DNA of 64,000 bases from a bacterium (GTDB lineage: Bacteria > Patescibacteriota > Minisyncoccia > Phycocordibacterales > UBA2100), in contig JAUSJH010000002.1 in NCBI GenBank assembly GCA_030647655.1, positions 43,711-107,710 of the forward strand, read 5' to 3'. Under the pieces are notes generated by a model. The model was given only the letters and a program-made list of their open reading frames with translations, had not been told where the DNA came from and made no database searches. This document shows positions 7,101 to 33,792 of this stretch, in pieces (within the stretch, counting starts at the first letter, position 1; each line of letters begins with the position of its first letter). The position numbers were made by a program, and so were the translations under genes.

Positions 7101-7880
7101 CTAGAGCTTCTTCGAAAAATAGTGCGATTCTCGAACTTTCCAATTCCTTTTAAGAGGGTCTAGTACTTTTTCCCCGTATTTCTCTATTACTTCATCTGCC
7201 GTTTTGTTCTTAACCTCGTCATCTTCATTAGCCATGCCTTTAACAAGTTCCTCAAGGTGTGGATCCCTCTTTTTTAATTCGTATAATGTCCAAGTGGAAT
7301 CAAGGCCAGCTTTTCTTTCTATTTTTGCCAACGATGAATCGTTTGCTCTCGCACACTCCCAATAGACTACCGTAGCCTCAAAATAGTCGCGAAGTAAATC
7401 AGGAATGCTCATCGTCTTGAGTTTGTTTTCCATTTTTATAGTGAAGAGCAAATGTTGAACAGCGAGGATGAACATTGGGACAGAGAGCACCGTAATGAGC
7501 ACGTCCAACGACAATGTAGTTACTAAGTATGGTTCAGCTTGGATTAGCGAGAGTCCTAGATTCTCCACCCACAAATAAATCAGAAAGACTGTCGCGAAAA
7601 AGGCTACAAGCGCATATAATGCGATGAAGGTGTACGCAAGTTTGCCTCGCCATCGTAGGAAAGAGAGCAAAGCCACGAGACCAATTATTTCGACAGCCAG
7701 TGAAGTCAGGATGTCTATCGCTCCGTCATGATTGTGAAAATTGCCATATTGAGTCCGAATGGTGGTCGTTAGCCAGAGTCCAATCACGATCCAGAGGAGC
7801 CGATTTCGACTCTTCAAAAGTAGCAGAATCTCGTTCCACAGAAACGCATGGTAATTCTTCAGTTTTTCTTTTTCAGCCAT
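7101..7880 (-). CDS. hypothetical membrane protein (low-GC)
   Basis: 259 aa ORF with about 5 hydrophobic helices and a charged C-terminal domain. The local GC is markedly lower than the flanks. It lies between tRNA-Lys and tRNA-Leu. Confidence 0.5.
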   Translation of the reverse strand: MAEKEKLKNYHAFLWNEILLLLKSRNRLLWIVIGLWLTTTIRTQYGNFHNHDGAIDILTSLAVEIIGLVALLSFLRWRGKLAYTFIALYALVAFFATVFLIYLWVENLGLSLIQAEPYLVTTLSLDVLITVLSVPMFILAVQHLLFTIKMENKLKTMSIPDLLRDYFEATVVYWECARANDSSLAKIERKAGLDSTWTLYELKKRDPHLEELVKGMANEDDEVKNKTADEVIEKYGEKVLDPLKRNWKVRESHYFSKKL

Positions 7881-28139: not shown

Positions 28140-28214
28140 AAATATGAGAGGAGTTGCGAGTGACAGGAAGTGCGGCGTGAATGCTACTATGTTCAGAGTC
28201 GGACCGTATAACTC

Positions 28215-29570
28215 ATGCCCCGCCACGACCATCTTATGATAATAGAGCAGATTAACCAGAACATCAGGGAAAATAGGCAAAATTCTACGCTCGATTTTGT
28301 CTATCAGCGAATGTCGACATCCTTGCCCGTAGACAGAAAACTTGTCGCCGGATTCCTCCAGAAAGAAGGTGGACTATCTGAGGGTTTTTTATTGTTCGTT
28401 GAAGCACTCAGCGACAGACGAAAACGCTACTCTCCCGAAGATCTCGAAGAACGAGATGCAAAGGCTGTAGAACAGGCGAGTCCGTATGTGCCGAATGAAA
28501 GTGCGAGCAGGAATGTCGTACTCCGACGCGAGGATGAGGGAATACCGAGTGCCCTCGAGCTATTCTTCTTGATGCTCCTGTCGAGCAAGGAATGGGAGCA
28601 GATCTGCACTACGAAAGAAGAGGGAACTGCTCTCGGAGAGATGTCGACGCGCAATGTCATCGAGAATGTATTGGGTGACACGCCTCGCACCAAGAAATTC
28701 ACCCATGCGGTACAAGCAGAAGTGCGAAAATTCGCGGAGTCCGCTTCTGTCGTATGCGACGCAGGTTGCGGACCGTTTCCAATCTTAGGTCTTTCGGCTG
28801 CGCTCGCATCTCCACGAGCTGCAGTAACGTGTATAGAATTGAACCCGCTTTCTGCAAGGATAGCGCAGGCAATCGTGGATAAATTCGTTGCGAACGGCAG
28901 CATCGCGGCGGGACAGATCCTCGTAAAAAGCGGCGATGCATTGACCGAACCCCTTCCTCCTGAAGGAAGTATCGACCTCTTTATTTCCGAGACGCTCGGT
29001 GCCGGACTTATGGATGAGCCGGGACCCGATATATTTTCGCGTTTTGCCCCGTGCATTAATCGAGATCGTGGTTCGACTATTCCATACCGCGCCAAACTTT
29101 CTGCGGCAGTCGTCCCGGTAAATAAAGGCATATCGCACGGCAAAGATGGGAGAAAGATTACGAGGTATCCGAACTTCGTTCTCAATACGAATGGTACAGA
29201 ATTACCGGTCGTTCCTGCAGGTGAGTGGGTCCCGCTCGAAGGCGGAAAAGAGTTGCCGCTTACCGATATTCCCAAATGCATCAATGGCGTTATCGACCTT
29301 CCGTCCGGGTTGAGCCGCGCTGAGTTTGATGGGAACTATGATGTTGCGATATCCACGGAGTTTGTTATTAATCAAGATAGGCGAGAAGCCGTGGCCCGAT
29401 ACGAAACATTCATCACATCACCCGTAATGTTAGGAGTGGGTTTCGTTACGATTCCACAAAAGCTACAGAAGTCCGCTCTCGCATCTCTTAGGATTAAATT
29501 TTCGTTCGTACCGGGAGGTAACTCGCGTTTAGCATCAAAAGTCGAGGTGGTGCGGAGAGGCGATATTTGA
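28215..29570 (+). CDS. PRMT-like (protein arginine N-methyltransferase-type) class I SAM methyltransferase with N-terminal extension
   Basis: Motif I VVCDAGCGPFPILGL, post-I AAVTCIELN, the motif II/double-E region ILVKSGDALTEPLPPEGSIDLFISETLGAGLMDEPGP (compare PRMT [26 protein letters not shown]), then a beta-barrel-like C-terminus. Confidence 0.55.
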   Translation: MPRHDHLMIIEQINQNIRENRQNSTLDFVYQRMSTSLPVDRKLVAGFLQKEGGLSEGFLLFVEALSDRRKRYSPEDLEERDAKAVEQASPYVPNESASRNVVLRREDEGIPSALELFFLMLLSSKEWEQICTTKEEGTALGEMSTRNVIENVLGDTPRTKKFTHAVQAEVRKFAESASVVCDAGCGPFPILGLSAALASPRAAVTCIELNPLSARIAQAIVDKFVANGSIAAGQILVKSGDALTEPLPPEGSIDLFISETLGAGLMDEPGPDIFSRFAPCINRDRGSTIPYRAKLSAAVVPVNKGISHGKDGRKITRYPNFVLNTNGTELPVVPAGEWVPLEGGKELPLTDIPKCINGVIDLPSGLSRAEFDGNYDVAISTEFVINQDRREAVARYETFITSPVMLGVGFVTIPQKLQKSALASLRIKFSFVPGGNSRLASKVEVVRRGDI

Positions 29571-29574
29571 TACG

Positions 29575-30543
29575 GTGCCGAAAACCGGTATGCAATCGTT
29601 TTGGGGAAAATTGCCGAAGCCGTTTTTTGCGCTTGCGCCGATGGAAGATGTGACGGATGCCGCGTTTCGCCGCCTCATCGCGAAGTACGGCAAACCGGAT
29701 GTGATGTTCACAGAATTCACTTCGGCCGACGGTCTTGCGCGCGCGGATGAAGAAGGGAAAAAGAAACTCTTGAAAAAGCTCGAATATTCTGAATCCGAGC
29801 GTCCCATCGTCGCACAGCTTTTCACATCTAATCCCGAATACATGGAAGCGGGCGCGAAGCTTTGTGCGGAACTCGGCTTTGATGGCTTTGATATCAACAT
29901 GGGTTGTCCCGACAGGGCGGTGGAGAAAAGCGGCTGCGGTGCGGCGCTCATAAAGAATCCTGCGCTCGCGCGCGAGCTCATCCGTGCGGCGAAGAAGAGC
30001 GGCCTGCCTGTGTCGGTGAAGACGCGTATCGGGTACAACAGTGATGAACTTGATACATGGCTTCCTGAATTGCTTGCCGAAGAGCCCGCGGCAATAATCA
30101 TCCACGCACGTACGCGCAAGGAAATGTCGGACGTACCTGCGCGGTGGGACACGATTGCGCGCGCGGTCGCAATTCGCGACTCATCGAAATCAAAGACACT
30201 CATCATTGGTAATGGTGACGTGAAAGATATCGCCGAGGCGCGCGCCAAAGCGGCAGAAACAAAATGCGACGGTGTCATGCTCGGCTGTGCGATTTTCGGC
30301 AACCCGTGGCTGTTTGTGGGGCGCACAGAGCCGCCATCGCGCGAAGAAAAGATACAAGCACTTATCGAGCACCTTGTGCTTTTCGATGAGTTGCTCGGCG
30401 ACACGACCAATTACGCGACGATGAAAAAGCATTTCAAAGCATACGTTTCAGGCTGGGACGGAGCAAAAGAATTACGTGTGAAATTGATGGAAACCCAATT
30501 TGCAAAAGAGGCTCAACAGGTTATTCAAAGTGTTGTTTTTTAA
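29575..30543 (+). CDS. tRNA-dihydrouridine synthase
   Basis: FMN TIM-barrel Dus signature (LAPMEDVTDAAFRRL...VAQLF...DINMGCP...VSVKTRIG). Confidence 0.9.
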   Translation: MPKTGMQSFWGKLPKPFFALAPMEDVTDAAFRRLIAKYGKPDVMFTEFTSADGLARADEEGKKKLLKKLEYSESERPIVAQLFTSNPEYMEAGAKLCAELGFDGFDINMGCPDRAVEKSGCGAALIKNPALARELIRAAKKSGLPVSVKTRIGYNSDELDTWLPELLAEEPAAIIIHARTRKEMSDVPARWDTIARAVAIRDSSKSKTLIIGNGDVKDIAEARAKAAETKCDGVMLGCAIFGNPWLFVGRTEPPSREEKIQALIEHLVLFDELLGDTTNYATMKKHFKAYVSGWDGAKELRVKLMETQFAKEAQQVIQSVVF

Positions 30544-30625
30544 GACGAACAAGAGTATCGTCTGCATCGGACGGCACATTCACGTAACCCATATCCTATA
30601 CCCATGCAGGAAAGAAAGGCTCCAA

Positions 30626-31243
30626 ATGAAAGAACCCAAGCTAATATGGCGGCCTTATGCGCCGAAGGACATTGCTCGGCCGATGCCCCCACAAGTGGTG
30701 GCCAAAGCAAGTCCAGAGAAGAGTGCCTTAACCACTGGTGCTCGTGCGCCTCTGCCGCTACCCCCGAAACCGGCGGTTCGCGTAGAAGACAAAGCAGCAC
30801 CAGCCGGACAAAGAACGCGAAGTACAGTCAAGGCTCCGGTTATTCGTGGTGGAGCTTTGCTCGACATGATGGCGGAAATCAAACGACAGCACAAACTCGT
30901 TCTTAATCTAGCCTATATTGCTAGGCAGATGGGCATGCCGGTCCAGCTTGTACGTAAGCTGTACTTAGCTGGGAACTTCACTCCCGAAATGGAGGCGCTC
31001 ATTAGAACCGAAGATCTTTGGCTCGAAATAGCGTTTGCTATCCAGCAGTATCCACCAGCGCTTCGTGCTCCGATTGCAAAGACCTTCAAGTCGGCTGGGC
31101 GAACGCCAAGGAATCTCGGTCGCATCCTACGCGATGCGGAATCTGACGGCATGCAGATGAAGACTCTTCGGTTTCGGCTCGAAAGCCTAGGAGTCGTGTG
31201 GCCGAAAGGTCTGAATAATGACGGTACGCCGAAACAGGTGTAA
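30626..31243 (+). CDS. hypothetical protein (Pro-rich N-terminus, HTH-like C-terminus)
   Basis: Start trimmed to MKEPKLIW. A Pro/Ala-rich linker, then LAYIARQMGMPVQLVRKL, a helix-turn-helix-like segment. No confident family. Confidence 0.4.
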   Translation: MKEPKLIWRPYAPKDIARPMPPQVVAKASPEKSALTTGARAPLPLPPKPAVRVEDKAAPAGQRTRSTVKAPVIRGGALLDMMAEIKRQHKLVLNLAYIARQMGMPVQLVRKLYLAGNFTPEMEALIRTEDLWLEIAFAIQQYPPALRAPIAKTFKSAGRTPRNLGRILRDAESDGMQMKTLRFRLESLGVVWPKGLNNDGTPKQV

Positions 31244-31309: not shown

Positions 31310-32350
31310 ATGTCAAAAGAAGCTCGGCACGCGACGCTCTATCGCACGTATCGACCGGCCACGTTTGCCGAAGTGCGCGGGCAAGCACATGTGGTAGACG
31401 TGCTCGAGAAGGCAATCAAGAATAACAAGCCCGCGCATGCGTACCTCTTTTCCGGAGGGCGGGGGACGGGGAAAACCTCTGTCGCGCGTATCCTTGCACG
31501 TGAGCTCGGTGTCACCGACAAAGACCTATACGAGATAGACGCCGCTTCCAATACCGGTGTCGACGACATCCGCGAATTGCGCGAAGGCGTTCACACCGTG
31601 CCGTTCGAATCGCCGTACAAGTTTTACATAATCGACGAAGCACACATGCTTTCGCGTGCCGCGTGGAACGCATTTCTTAAAACACTCGAAGAGCCGCCCG
31701 CGCACGTGATTTTTGTCCTCGCGACGACCGCGCTCGAGAAAGTGCCCGATACCATCCAATCGCGCTGCGAGGTCTATGCCTTCAAGCAGCCGACGAGGGT
31801 GATGCTTGCGGAGGCGGTTGCCGATATTGCGAAAAAAGAGGGATATGCGCTCGAACGCTCCGCGGCGGAACTGGTCGCACTTCTTGCCGAAGGCTCGTTC
31901 CGCGACGCGCTTTCTATTTTACAGAAAGTGCTTTCGGTTTCGGACAACAAAAAAATAGAGGTCACAGAGGTGGAGATGGTCTCCGGCGCTCCGCGCAGTG
32001 AGATGATACGGCAGTTGCTTTCGGCAATCGCGAAGAAGGATTGCACGAACGCGCTCGGGGTGATACAGCAAGCTGTATCGGAAAACATGGACGCGCGTAC
32101 GCTCATGAAACTTCTCATTCATCGTATGCGCGTCGTGCTCCTTCTGCGCTCCGCGCCCGATCTAGGGCATCAGCTCTCGCACGAACTCACCGAAGCCGAC
32201 TTGGCACTTGCACTTGAGCTCTCCAAGGAAGCCGGTGTGAATTCCAATACATTACGAACACTGCTCGAAGCGTACTCGCAGACAGCTTATGCCGCCGTGC
32301 CGCACTTGCCGCTTGAGCTTGCGCTCATCGATATATGCGCCGCGAAGTAA
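31310..32350 (+). CDS. dnaX: DNA polymerase III subunit gamma/tau (short form)
   Basis: AAA+ clamp-loader motifs (YRPATFAEVRGQ, GGRGTGKTS, YIIDEAHML, the SRC motif in QSRCEVY) and domain III. Confidence 0.85.
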   Translation: MSKEARHATLYRTYRPATFAEVRGQAHVVDVLEKAIKNNKPAHAYLFSGGRGTGKTSVARILARELGVTDKDLYEIDAASNTGVDDIRELREGVHTVPFESPYKFYIIDEAHMLSRAAWNAFLKTLEEPPAHVIFVLATTALEKVPDTIQSRCEVYAFKQPTRVMLAEAVADIAKKEGYALERSAAELVALLAEGSFRDALSILQKVLSVSDNKKIEVTEVEMVSGAPRSEMIRQLLSAIAKKDCTNALGVIQQAVSENMDARTLMKLLIHRMRVVLLLRSAPDLGHQLSHELTEADLALALELSKEAGVNSNTLRTLLEAYSQTAYAAVPHLPLELALIDICAAK

Positions 32351-33144
32351 AGAAAGGCAGGCCCGCGCCTGCGCGCGGGCCGGCTAAGTCGCCCAAAAAA
32401 GAGACTTCGTGGGGACACGTGGCCAATTGGTATCACGAACACGTGAGCGAATCCGGCGATACGTATCACGAGAAGGTTATCAAGCCCAATCTGCTCCGCG
32501 TGCTCGGCGACGTGCAGGGAAAATTGATCTTGGACGTTGCCTGCGGACAGGGTTTTTTCTCCCGAGCGCTTGCGGCGAAGGGCGCTCGAGTGACAGGCGT
32601 CGATATCGCGCCGGAGCTCATCGCTATCGCGCGTCAACTCGGCCCTGCCGACATTTCCTACATCGCCGCTTCCGCCTCGCGCATGCCGCTACCGGATTCG
32701 TCATTCAATGCGGCACTGTGCGTACTCGCACTCCAAAACATCAAAGACCTTTCAGGCGCGCTCGCACAAGTCGCGCATCTCTTGAAAAAAGACGGTTCGT
32801 TCGTAATCGTGCTCAATCATCCATGTTTTCGTATACCGCGGCATTCCGAGTGGGGATTTGACCCGGATGCCTCCGTACAATTCCGCCGCATCGACAGGTA
32901 TCTCTCCGAGAGTTCATATGCTATCCAGATGCACCCGGGGAAGAATCCCGACGTGACGACGCTCTCGTACCACCGCCCGCTCCAGCTCTATATGAAAGAA
33001 CTCGCGAAACACGGCTTCGTCCTCGCGGGCCTCGAAGAATGGATATCACATCGCGTGAGCGAAAAAGGGCCGCGCGCGGGGGCGGAAGACCGCGCGCGCA
33101 AGGAGTTCCCATTGTTCCTGATGCTCAACGCGCGTAAACAATAA
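32335..33144 (+). CDS. class I SAM-dependent methyltransferase (Methyltransf_11-like)
   Basis: Motif I ILDVACGQGFFS and post-I VTGVDIAPE. The start overlaps the dnaX stop. Confidence 0.7.
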   Translation: MRREVKKGRPAPARGPAKSPKKETSWGHVANWYHEHVSESGDTYHEKVIKPNLLRVLGDVQGKLILDVACGQGFFSRALAAKGARVTGVDIAPELIAIARQLGPADISYIAASASRMPLPDSSFNAALCVLALQNIKDLSGALAQVAHLLKKDGSFVIVLNHPCFRIPRHSEWGFDPDASVQFRRIDRYLSESSYAIQMHPGKNPDVTTLSYHRPLQLYMKELAKHGFVLAGLEEWISHRVSEKGPRAGAEDRARKEFPLFLMLNARKQ

Positions 33145-33150
33145 TTTTTA

Positions 33151-33168
33151 CTGGGGGACTTGGAATCG
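33151..33168 (-). repeat. 18-nt exact copy of the 3' end (T-arm/acceptor) of tRNA-Gln
   Basis: CTGGGGGACTTGGAATCG occurs at 33151-33168 and again at 33270-33287, the true tRNA 3' end. The copy at 33151 is not part of a foldable tRNA. Confidence 0.6.
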
Positions 33169-33269
33169 CCTCTCGTTGCTGCTGCAACTCGAAACCTTCG
33201 CTCCCTCGTCGGGAGCTGCGGCCCGCGGTTCGTATTCAAGTCTACCCCACTTTTCCGCTTCGCTTCAAA

Positions 33270-33340
33270 CTGGGGGACTTGGAATCGAACCAAGATTCAC
33301 AGCTCCAAAGGCTGCTGTCCTACCGTTAGACGATCCCCCA
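33270..33340 (-). tRNA. tRNA-Gln (anticodon TTG)
   Basis: The reverse complement reads TGGGGGATCGTCTAACGGTAGGAC-A-GCAGC-CTTTGGA-GCTGT-GAAT-CTTGGTTCGATTCCAAG-TCCCCCA-G, with a U1-A72 pair as in E. coli tRNA-Gln. Confidence 0.75.
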
Positions 33341-33399
33341 ATGTTTGTCGATACTACGGATTATATCCTCTTTTAGCAACCGGAAGGAGGTGTGGTAGC

Positions 33400-33792
33400 A
33401 TGGGCCACATGAACAAACTATTAGGCATCGCAGTCCTTATTATTCTCATCGGCGGGGGTTTTTGGTATATGCAATCTAACAAGCAGTCTAACAAATTTGT
33501 GAATACTGCAGATATGTGGGGCAAATACCCATATGAATGTGATGAGCATGTAACCTTTACAATGACACCAGCATCAGACATGAGTTCCATTCAGGTCGCG
33601 CCTTCCAACAATGGAACGTATCCGCCTGCGAGTACGCTTATGAAAAAGGAGAGCGCCTCGGGGGTTCGCTATGAGGGCAACGGCATCGTCTTTGCGGGAA
33701 GAGGAGAGACGGTAACGCTCGGAGAGGGGGACTCGGCCATCAACTGCTCTCCTATCCCGCAAGAGTGGGGGTCATTTAATTTTGGCGACTAG
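33400..33792 (+). CDS. small secreted/membrane-anchored hypothetical protein
   Basis: Strong RBS GGAAGGAGG 8 nt upstream. Signal anchor LLGIAVLIILIGGGFWY. 130 aa. Confidence 0.5.
   Translation: MGHMNKLLGIAVLIILIGGGFWYMQSNKQSNKFVNTADMWGKYPYECDEHVTFTMTPASDMSSIQVAPSNNGTYPPASTLMKKESASGVRYEGNGIVFAGRGETVTLGEGDSAINCSPIPQEWGSFNFGD

Follow-up and report, generated by a model that had tools for sequence, protein, structure and literature searches.

Protein arginine methylation has a central place in the RNA and chromatin biology of eukaryotes; in bacteria, to our knowledge, it is barely understood. In all canonical protein arginine methyltransferases (PRMTs) the arginine pocket is lined by a THW loop (FSW in PRMT5), and the type I enzymes require dimerisation for activity; both the loop and the dimer arm are regarded as integral to catalysis by PRMTs. 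On the bacterial side, computational work of the Aravind group (cited in PMC3417536) describes PRMT-like 'peptide methylases', Legionella homologues of PRMTs have been predicted but never studied (PMC10117894), and SznE/StzE of streptozotocin biosynthesis is a bacterial enzyme, dependent on S-adenosylmethionine (SAM), that methylates a guanidino nitrogen of arginine (PMC11705231). Here we analyse a gene at positions 28215..29570 of a 64,000-nucleotide stretch of bacterial DNA (the whole of which we call the window: GenBank assembly GCA_030647655.1, contig JAUSJH010000002.1, positions 43,711 to 107,710 of the forward strand). An earlier reading of the letters alone – the original prediction – had taken its product for a eukaryote-type PRMT-like enzyme. 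We conclude that the protein represents a bacterial branch of its own within the PRMT-like superfamily, being neither a canonical PRMT nor a recent eukaryotic transfer. Alignments and a predicted structure suggest, with a probability of roughly 60%, that it is a cytoplasmic SAM-dependent N-methyltransferase of that superfamily, most likely methylating the guanidino group of arginine on a protein or peptide.

Nearest known relatives

When the single window sequence was compared to the Protein Data Bank (PDB), the best match was PRMT2 (E 0.033), in an alignment pairing VLGDTPRTKKF with MLSDKPRTETY and ISETLG with SEWMG. With a profile built from 13 family sequences, the top 52 distinct matches among all PDB sequences were PRMTs, led by CARM1 (E 9e-12), PRMT6 (E 2.5e-9) and PRMT1 (E 5.7e-9), each over profile positions 142-290; the first match that was not a PRMT appeared at E 4e-4. 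Alignment of profiles by hhalign gave a consistent picture: an 80-sequence family alignment matched PRMT1 with a probability of 97% (E 1e-10; 26% identity over ~145 residues), and matched PRMT1, CARM1 and PRMT6 combined with a probability of 98.6% (E 9.6e-16; 329 columns). The three reference sequences were confirmed against PDB chains 6nt2_A, 2y1w_A and 4hc4_A.

A first predicted model, from six sequences, was mediocre (predicted local distance difference test, pLDDT, 73), whereas the AlphaFold2 model based on the 80-sequence alignment reached a pLDDT of 93.5 and a predicted template modelling score of 0.92. For both models the top 50 Foldseek matches were all PRMTs, with 14-18% identity to the eukaryotic enzymes in the structural alignments. 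Because these top 50 are only PRMTs, the two-domain PRMT architecture is a specific match that goes beyond 'a methyltransferase'. By sequence profile and predicted fold, then, the nearest known relatives are eukaryotic PRMTs; a biochemically or structurally characterised bacterial enzyme with a PRMT fold was not among the matches found.

Standard annotation gives a weaker signal. A Pfam scan of the window protein returned MTS as its sole match (E 0.24) and nothing significant, scans of NCBIfam and PHROGs returned no match, and against the curated PRMT profile (PF05185 or equivalent) the protein falls below the gathering threshold. A PADLOC match to mad2 (E 6e-4, 16.7 bits) could have suggested a defence system; it is weak and lies in the Rossmann region, and we treat it as generic methyltransferase similarity.

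The SAM site and the double-E loop

All features given below lie on the + strand, and all conservation counts refer to the 80-sequence alignment, in which relatives are ~25% identical to the query. The SAM-binding domain of PRMT type (residues 141-291; 28635..29087), delimited from the match of the family profile to the PDB and from hhalign, has in the AlphaFold2 model the Rossmann fold of a class I SAM-binding domain. Near its start, helices at residues 145-171 (28647..28727) carry VLGD155-TP-R158-T159-KKF162, which aligns to MLKDEVRTLTY of PRMT1 in addition to the PRMT2 segment above. In PRMT1 the arginine of this 'MLxDxxRTxxY' helix binds the SAM carboxylate; here R158 is found in 80/80 sequences, T159 in 77/80, and D155 and F162 in 75/80 each. 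Motif I, consisting of strand beta-1 and its glycine loop (SVVCDAGCGPFP, residues 178-189; 28746..28781), aligns to the PRMT pattern VLDVG(S/C)G(T/S)G; within its core VCDAGCGPFP (residues 180-189) G184 and G186 are invariant, D182 is kept in 75/80 and P189 in 76/80. The post-I strand (28824..28838) ends in E208 (79/80), aligned to the E of 'IGIE' in PRMT1 and of 'YAVE' in CARM1: the acidic residue by which PRMTs bind the ribose hydroxyls of SAM. An adenine-side motif, S-G-D241-A242-L (28929..28943; D241 75/80, A242 76/80), follows strand 235-239 and sits where PRMT1 has 'GKVEEV'. Judged by these alignments and the model, all residues used by PRMTs to hold SAM (R158, G184/G186, E208 and D241) are present.

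The double-E loop, D254-LFIS-E259-TLGAGLMD-E268-P269 (28974..29021), aligns to the catalytic pair of glutamates of CARM1 and PRMT1. The segment ISE259-TLGAGLMD-E268 pairs residue for residue with SEPMGYMLFNE of CARM1 and SEWMGYCLFYE of PRMT1, and the nine-residue spacing of the two glutamates is identical. E268 is present in 80/80 sequences and E259 in 78/80 (the remaining two have D), flanked by S258 (78/80) and T260 (79/80). Six residues are invariant across the whole alignment – R158, G184, G186, E268, P290 and G434 – and the conservation pattern indicates that the SAM site and the double-E loop are under strong purifying selection. The positions that set product type, which we take to be PRMT1 Met48 (PRMT5 Phe327) and PRMT1 Met155, match V152 (Cys in most relatives) and P269, and differ here from all eukaryotic PRMT types: whether the product would be mono-, asymmetric or symmetric dimethyl-arginine is therefore not predictable.

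These results bear on several statements of the original prediction. Motif I, the acidic post-I residue and the double-E loop, which it had named, are present (E208; E259 and E268) and were aligned with those of PRMTs in unbiased searches. Its claim of a close match to the PRMT catalytic core stands as to the core, at a level that chance does not come near (profile E 9e-12, top 52 matches PRMTs), while the match itself is remote (26% over ~145 residues). Of the checks it proposed, structure prediction bore out the PRMT-like fold through the pLDDT 93.5 model and its uniform Foldseek result; the profile search gave a divided answer, with PRMTs best by family profile and hhalign and no significant Pfam or NCBIfam match for the window protein alone.

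Flanking domains

The Rossmann domain is preceded by an all-helical, family-specific domain (residues 1-140; 28215..28634), for which AlphaFold predicts helices at residues 5-15, 24-34, 38-49, 53-63, 74-86, 96-103, 113-120 and 124-130, with pLDDT > 85 from residue 21. In the searches of Pfam, NCBIfam, PHROGs and PDB sequences nothing matched this domain, and no relatives were detected outside the family. Whole-protein isoelectric points (pI) range from 5.1 to 6.5 across the family; the N-terminal domain has a pI of 5.0 and the C-terminal domain a pI of 9.5.

The C-terminal domain (residues 292-451; 29088..29567) is beta-rich, is the counterpart of the PRMT beta-barrel, and is predicted to pack on the Rossmann domain as the barrel does in PRMTs. 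It contains the motif Y396-E-T-F-I-T401-S-P403 (29400..29423; S/T398 78/80, T/S401 79/80, P403 64/80), which by spacing corresponds to 'GFSTSP' of PRMT1, the segment that precedes the THW loop. In the family block Y375...E/D397-S398-x-I-T401-x-P403, the distance from Y375 to T401-x-P403 equals that of Y...T-S-P in PRMT1. A conserved barrel turn, F431-V-P433-G434 (29505..29516), lies further on (G434 80/80, P433 69/80, Y431 69/80). Beyond P403 the likeness stops: columns 404-416 of the 80-sequence alignment are variable, contain gaps and show no conserved His or Trp, and in the AlphaFold2 model a strand (404-406) starts straight after P403. The hhalign alignment places the THW residues in a PRMT-specific insertion, with low confidence in that region. 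Across residues 281-367, the region of the PRMT dimerisation arm, the same model has no helix of four or more residues and shows short strands or hairpins instead.

A rare bacterial family

An identical protein is entered at NCBI as 'MAG: hypothetical protein Q7S50_00465 [bacterium]', MAG denoting a metagenome-assembled genome. The open reading frame (ORF) 28215-29570 is listed with an ATG start and 451 aa, its span including the stop codon, and is a real gene because full-length homologues (35-63% identity) are conserved in independent metagenomes. Most of these begin at an aligned 'MIE/MNE/MTE', so the true start is probably the second ATG (M8; 28236..28238), seven codons past the listed one; no clear Shine-Dalgarno sequence was seen upstream of either ATG (28215 or 28236).

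Word-indexed homologue searches found only six to nine relatives, even with the 80-sequence profile; the wider family came to light when 1.84 billion representatives were searched exhaustively by phmmer: 255 proteins (each a cluster at 50% identity) at E <= 1e-3, of which 126 reach E <= 1e-10. The best 150 of the 255 all belong to the same prokaryotic family, with no eukaryotic PRMT among them. Two tiers can be distinguished. Tier 1 is a small group with the full architecture (440-470 aa; 34-64% identity), and tier 2, which is larger, consists of proteins of 350-480 aa whose match is limited to residues ~105-305 (35-45% local identity). Residues 105-115 (R-x-D-x-G-x-P-S-x-L-E), at the end of the N-terminal domain, are conserved in these shorter relatives too, whose match starts at ~105. 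PF05185 (PRMT5) is matched by 27 of the 37 scanned tier-2 relatives (best E 1.3e-10; cut-off 22.9 bits), which also match generic methyltransferase models.

In a pattern scan of 185,579 GTDB species representatives, a Candidatus Saccharibacteria MAG was the sole other locus confirmed for tier 1; tier 2 is present in a Parcubacteria MAG and on a Myxococcota-like contig. The family is thus rare, unannotated and bacterial, occurring in Parcubacteria, Saccharibacteria and one Myxococcota-like contig. We found no paper linking arginine methyltransferases to bacteria of the Candidate Phyla Radiation (CPR), and no characterised member of this protein family in the literature. One locus (L012, 5001-7420) carries tandem PRMT-like paralogues of 375 aa and 394 aa, both of which match the window protein by tblastn. 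A 2837-aa protein with 25 matched stretches (P0019), considered as a giant synthetase or relative, was set aside: its Pfam matches are incoherent (TetR_C_46, 40S_S4_C, DUF3723), none of the stretches is confident, and the sequence is probably repetitive or compositionally biased and no true relative.

The remaining statements of the original prediction fared unevenly. That PRMT homologues are rare in bacteria holds roughly, at 255 clusters among 1.84 billion representatives. It was right that an extra N-terminal domain exists; the length of 170 aa is too great by some thirty residues, since residues 141-171 form the PRMT helix with D155-x-x-R158-T159 and ~140 aa are left. The THW loop for which it asked to look was not found, either in columns 404-416 or in the secondary structure of the model. 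The label 'eukaryote-type' had to be given up, given the lack of that loop and of a predicted arm, the 14-18% identity, and a family that is entirely prokaryotic and numbers at least 255 clusters.

Genomic context and accessory status

The seryl-tRNA synthetase (SerRS) of the window shares 83-87% identity with proteins named Candidatus Kaiserbacteria (Parcubacteria, CPR), which assigns the window to the genome of an uncultured groundwater Kaiserbacteria member. The genes around the PRMT-like gene are housekeeping genes: RelA/SpoT, TopA, DprA, SerRS, an FtsQ-like POTRA protein, Dus and DnaX. The PRMT-like gene follows the FtsQ-like gene and ends 4 nt before dus. In a lineage from Rifle-type groundwater (L001-L006; SerRS 79% identical) a gene of 45% identity occupies this same slot, with the FtsQ-like gene on one side and dus on the other. 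In three closer Kaiserbacteria (L014-L016; SerRS 85-88%, including the complete 859-kb genome CP066682.1) the gene order is kept and no trace of the gene was found. Because these close relatives share the gene order and are without the gene, it is accessory, and its absence from them implies a modulatory and not an essential role; it has probably been lost repeatedly. Third-codon-position G+C content (GC3) is 0.50, the lowest of nine regional genes compared (others 0.54-0.67), which fits – as weak evidence – an accessory or laterally moved gene. We had considered adjacency to dus as a clue to substrate, and rejected it: dus stays where the gene is absent, and the adjacency is incidental.

Between the FtsQ-like gene and dus lies a slot (window 28140-28214) whose content varies in Kaiserbacteria. 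Where it is empty of the PRMT-like gene (L014, 9243-9636; L015, 9180-9630; L016, 9144-9550) it holds only one minus-strand ORF of 70-87 aa in each case; the three ORFs show no conservation with one another, and match nothing in the window. The order SerRS-FtsQ-like-X-Dus-DnaX is confined to Kaiserbacteria, and other lineages have unrelated neighbours. In two loci of Saccharibacteria type (L007, 187-3324; L010, 6529-7470) the tier-1 homologue adjoins an orthologous PfkB-family kinase, 53% identical between the loci. An S-adenosyl-homocysteine hydrolase gene lies near the homologue in L007, and a SAM synthetase gene ~4 kb away from the one in L012: such surroundings may constitute a SAM-cycle neighbourhood. 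Neither PfkB nor the hydrolase occurs in the 64-kb window. Upstream of the Parcubacteria tier-2 homologue (L008, 1333-5305) there is a prokaryotic ubiquitin-like conjugation cassette (Multi_ubiq, Prok-E2_E, ThiF with JAB) together with an AbiEii toxin gene, and a second small class I methyltransferase is encoded directly downstream (7169-7786).

Further observations concern genes downstream of dus in the window. An ORF without Pfam match lies between dus and dnaX (30500-31243; listed length 247 aa); as it runs into the end of dus, its real start is probably later than listed. At the matching position L001-L006 have an ORF of 162-164 aa (L001, 4878-5366). A gene for a methyltransferase of UbiE/Methyltransf_11 type (32335-33144) shares 16 nt with the 3' end of dnaX, and the dnaX-methyltransferase pair is kept in the Kaiserbacteria loci L014 and L015. 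Next comes a 210-aa ORF on the + strand (33160-33792) with a weak MliC match (E 2.8e-4, below the Pfam cut-off); the 5' part of this ORF is probably non-coding because a tRNA gene on the opposite strand (33270-33340, -) overlaps it.

Proposed function and alternative readings

In the mechanism we propose, E259 and E268 would clamp a guanidinium group, and arginine residues of one or a few proteins or peptides would receive a methyl group from SAM on their omega-nitrogen. Choice of the substrate is probably the task of the N-terminal helical domain (residues 1-140), which is acidic and family-specific. This domain may also stand in for a wall of the active site that in eukaryotic PRMTs is supplied by the THW loop and the dimerisation arm. 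Arginine methylation itself we infer from alignments and the predicted structure, by way of the two glutamates: an enzyme that holds a guanidinium group between them would methylate arginine. A protein or peptide substrate appears most likely because of the acidic extra domain, the lack of biosynthetic neighbours and the S-E-T-(L/M) form of motif IV; the acidic pI of the whole protein and of its N-terminal domain fits a basic protein better than RNA, albeit weakly.

Several observations weigh against this proposal. Column conservation, spacing and the secondary structure of the model indicate that the protein has no THW loop, and the model also shows no helical dimerisation arm. Since type I PRMTs need to dimerise, the lack of a predicted arm could mean an active site of different construction, or one that accepts another substrate. 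At the level of sequence the C-terminal domain shows no similarity to the PRMT barrel (it has no PRMT_C-type Pfam match, and hhalign confidence is low there). The geometry of the active site is itself deduced from alignments, and across the lineages examined no conserved partner gene or candidate substrate was found.

Could the acceptor be something other than arginine in a protein? A non-protein guanidino group – that of free L-arginine, of some other guanidino metabolite, or of a small peptide that may be non-ribosomal – has precedents in SznE/StzE, which methylates free L-arginine (PMC11705231), and in the bacterial PRMT-like 'peptide methylases', so far as these are presented where PMC3417536 cites them; the missing THW loop and arm could reflect a smaller substrate, and an accessory gene is compatible with such a role. 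We nevertheless judge this unlikely. No gene for a non-ribosomal peptide synthetase (NRPS), dioxygenase, amine oxidase or other biosynthetic enzyme lies nearby in any context examined, the neighbours being SerRS, the FtsQ-like gene, Dus, DnaX, ribosomal proteins, PfkB and others; small Kaiserbacteria genomes (one complete relative has 859 kb) leave little room for secondary metabolism; and the extra 140-aa domain suggests a macromolecular substrate. No better are the odds that the scaffold of a PRMT now serves another acceptor, such as a lysine, histidine or N-terminal amine in a protein, or a tRNA or rRNA base. The absent THW loop, and residues flanking the double-E loop that resemble those of no PRMT type, are in keeping with that idea, as are a basic C-terminal domain (pI 9.5), the tRNA-modifying enzyme encoded by dus 4 nt after the gene, and weak Pfam matches of relatives to the RNA methyltransferases TRM5-TYW2, GidB and TrmK. 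However, amino-group RNA and DNA methyltransferases and the protein methyltransferases PrmB and PrmC typically have a (D/N/S)-P-P-(Y/F/W) motif IV; strand 4 is followed here by the PRMT signature S-E-T-(L/M), without that motif. Two conserved acidic residues at PRMT spacing (E268 in 80/80, E259 in 78/80) are best explained by a guanidinium group, dus is kept in relatives without the gene, and the acidity of the whole protein speaks weakly against RNA.

Much less probable is that the protein is a catalytically dead scaffold or regulator, comparable to the PRMT1 'prozyme' of Trypanosoma. The missing loop and arm would suit a pseudoenzyme, as would fast evolution (the gene is 45% identical where SerRS is 79% identical), yet the SAM-binding residues and both catalytic glutamates are kept across 80 sequences that are ~25% identical, which is not expected of one. 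The least probable reading of all, which we regard as very nearly dismissed, is a canonical eukaryotic PRMT recently gained by horizontal transfer. That the best structural and sequence neighbours in the PDB are eukaryotic PRMTs, that GC3 is lower (0.50) than in neighbouring genes (0.54-0.67), and that the distribution is patchy could all be expected of such a gene; against this stand the 14-18% identity to eukaryotic PRMTs, the lack of THW loop and helical arm, and the best 150 of 255 phmmer matches, all of which are members of the prokaryotic family and none a eukaryotic PRMT. As there is no bacterial PRMT-fold structure among the PDB matches, the eukaryotic enzymes being 'nearest in PDB' is a sampling effect.

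If protein arginine methylation is indeed the activity, a bolder reading is conceivable, doubtful as it must be called: a native bacterial PRMT system, present in CPR bacteria and a few other phyla, in which a monomeric minimal PRMT would form its arginine pocket with the new N-terminal domain in place of THW loop and dimer arm, and methylate specific Arg-rich proteins of the cell (such as those of ribosomes, cell division or the nucleoid). Were this true, it would provide a prokaryotic model of PRMT chemistry before the eukaryotic enzymes arose. Apart from this reading, the family may offer a view of the bacterial stock that gave rise to eukaryotic PRMTs. A 'hypothetical protein' is in any case given a testable function, in bacteria of the CPR where a large share of genes is unannotated; weighed against this significance are the accessory status of the gene and the rarity of the family.

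Comparison with known systems

PrmA, the L11 methyltransferase, invites comparison with the window protein: it is a bacterial enzyme that N-methylates a protein, and a domain for substrate recognition stands N-terminal to its Rossmann domain. Weak matches to its Pfam model (PF06325) were found in 9 of 38 scanned sequences (best E 4.5e-6); the window protein has neither that match nor the PrmA architecture, which is without a C-terminal barrel. SznE/StzE, likened to the window family by description only, acts on free L-arginine inside a biosynthetic gene cluster. The 'peptide methylases' of the Aravind group, likewise compared by description and as far as the citing source presents them, are bacterial members of the PRMT-like radiation, and PRMT-like domains are thus not confined to eukaryotes. 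These enzymes are reported to be encoded in secondary-metabolite operons or fused to giant synthetases, whereas the window family stands alone among housekeeping genes of small CPR genomes: such neighbours were present in every locus examined, and neighbouring NRPS, peptide dioxygenase or amine oxidase genes, or fusion to a synthetase, were absent.

It is the eukaryotic PRMTs (PRMT1/2/3/6/8, CARM1, PRMT5, PRMT7 and PRMT9) that provide the most informative comparison. The window protein differs from them in the deletion of the THW loop, in having no predicted dimerisation arm, in V/C152 and P269, and in sharing 14-18% identity. It is also prokaryotic and accessory, has a unique 140-aa helical N-terminal domain, and as a whole protein lacks a significant Pfam match of its own. 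By alignment, the cofactor site and the catalytic loop are PRMT-like, and canonical PRMT membership fails on the THW loop and on the thresholds of curated profiles; going by the predicted model, it probably fails on the dimer arm as well. What the two have in common is the D-x-x-R-T helix, motif I, the post-I glutamate and the spacing of the double-E loop: a SAM site and a double-E clamp that, lacking THW loop and dimer arm, amount to a natural experiment on the minimal needs of arginine methylation.

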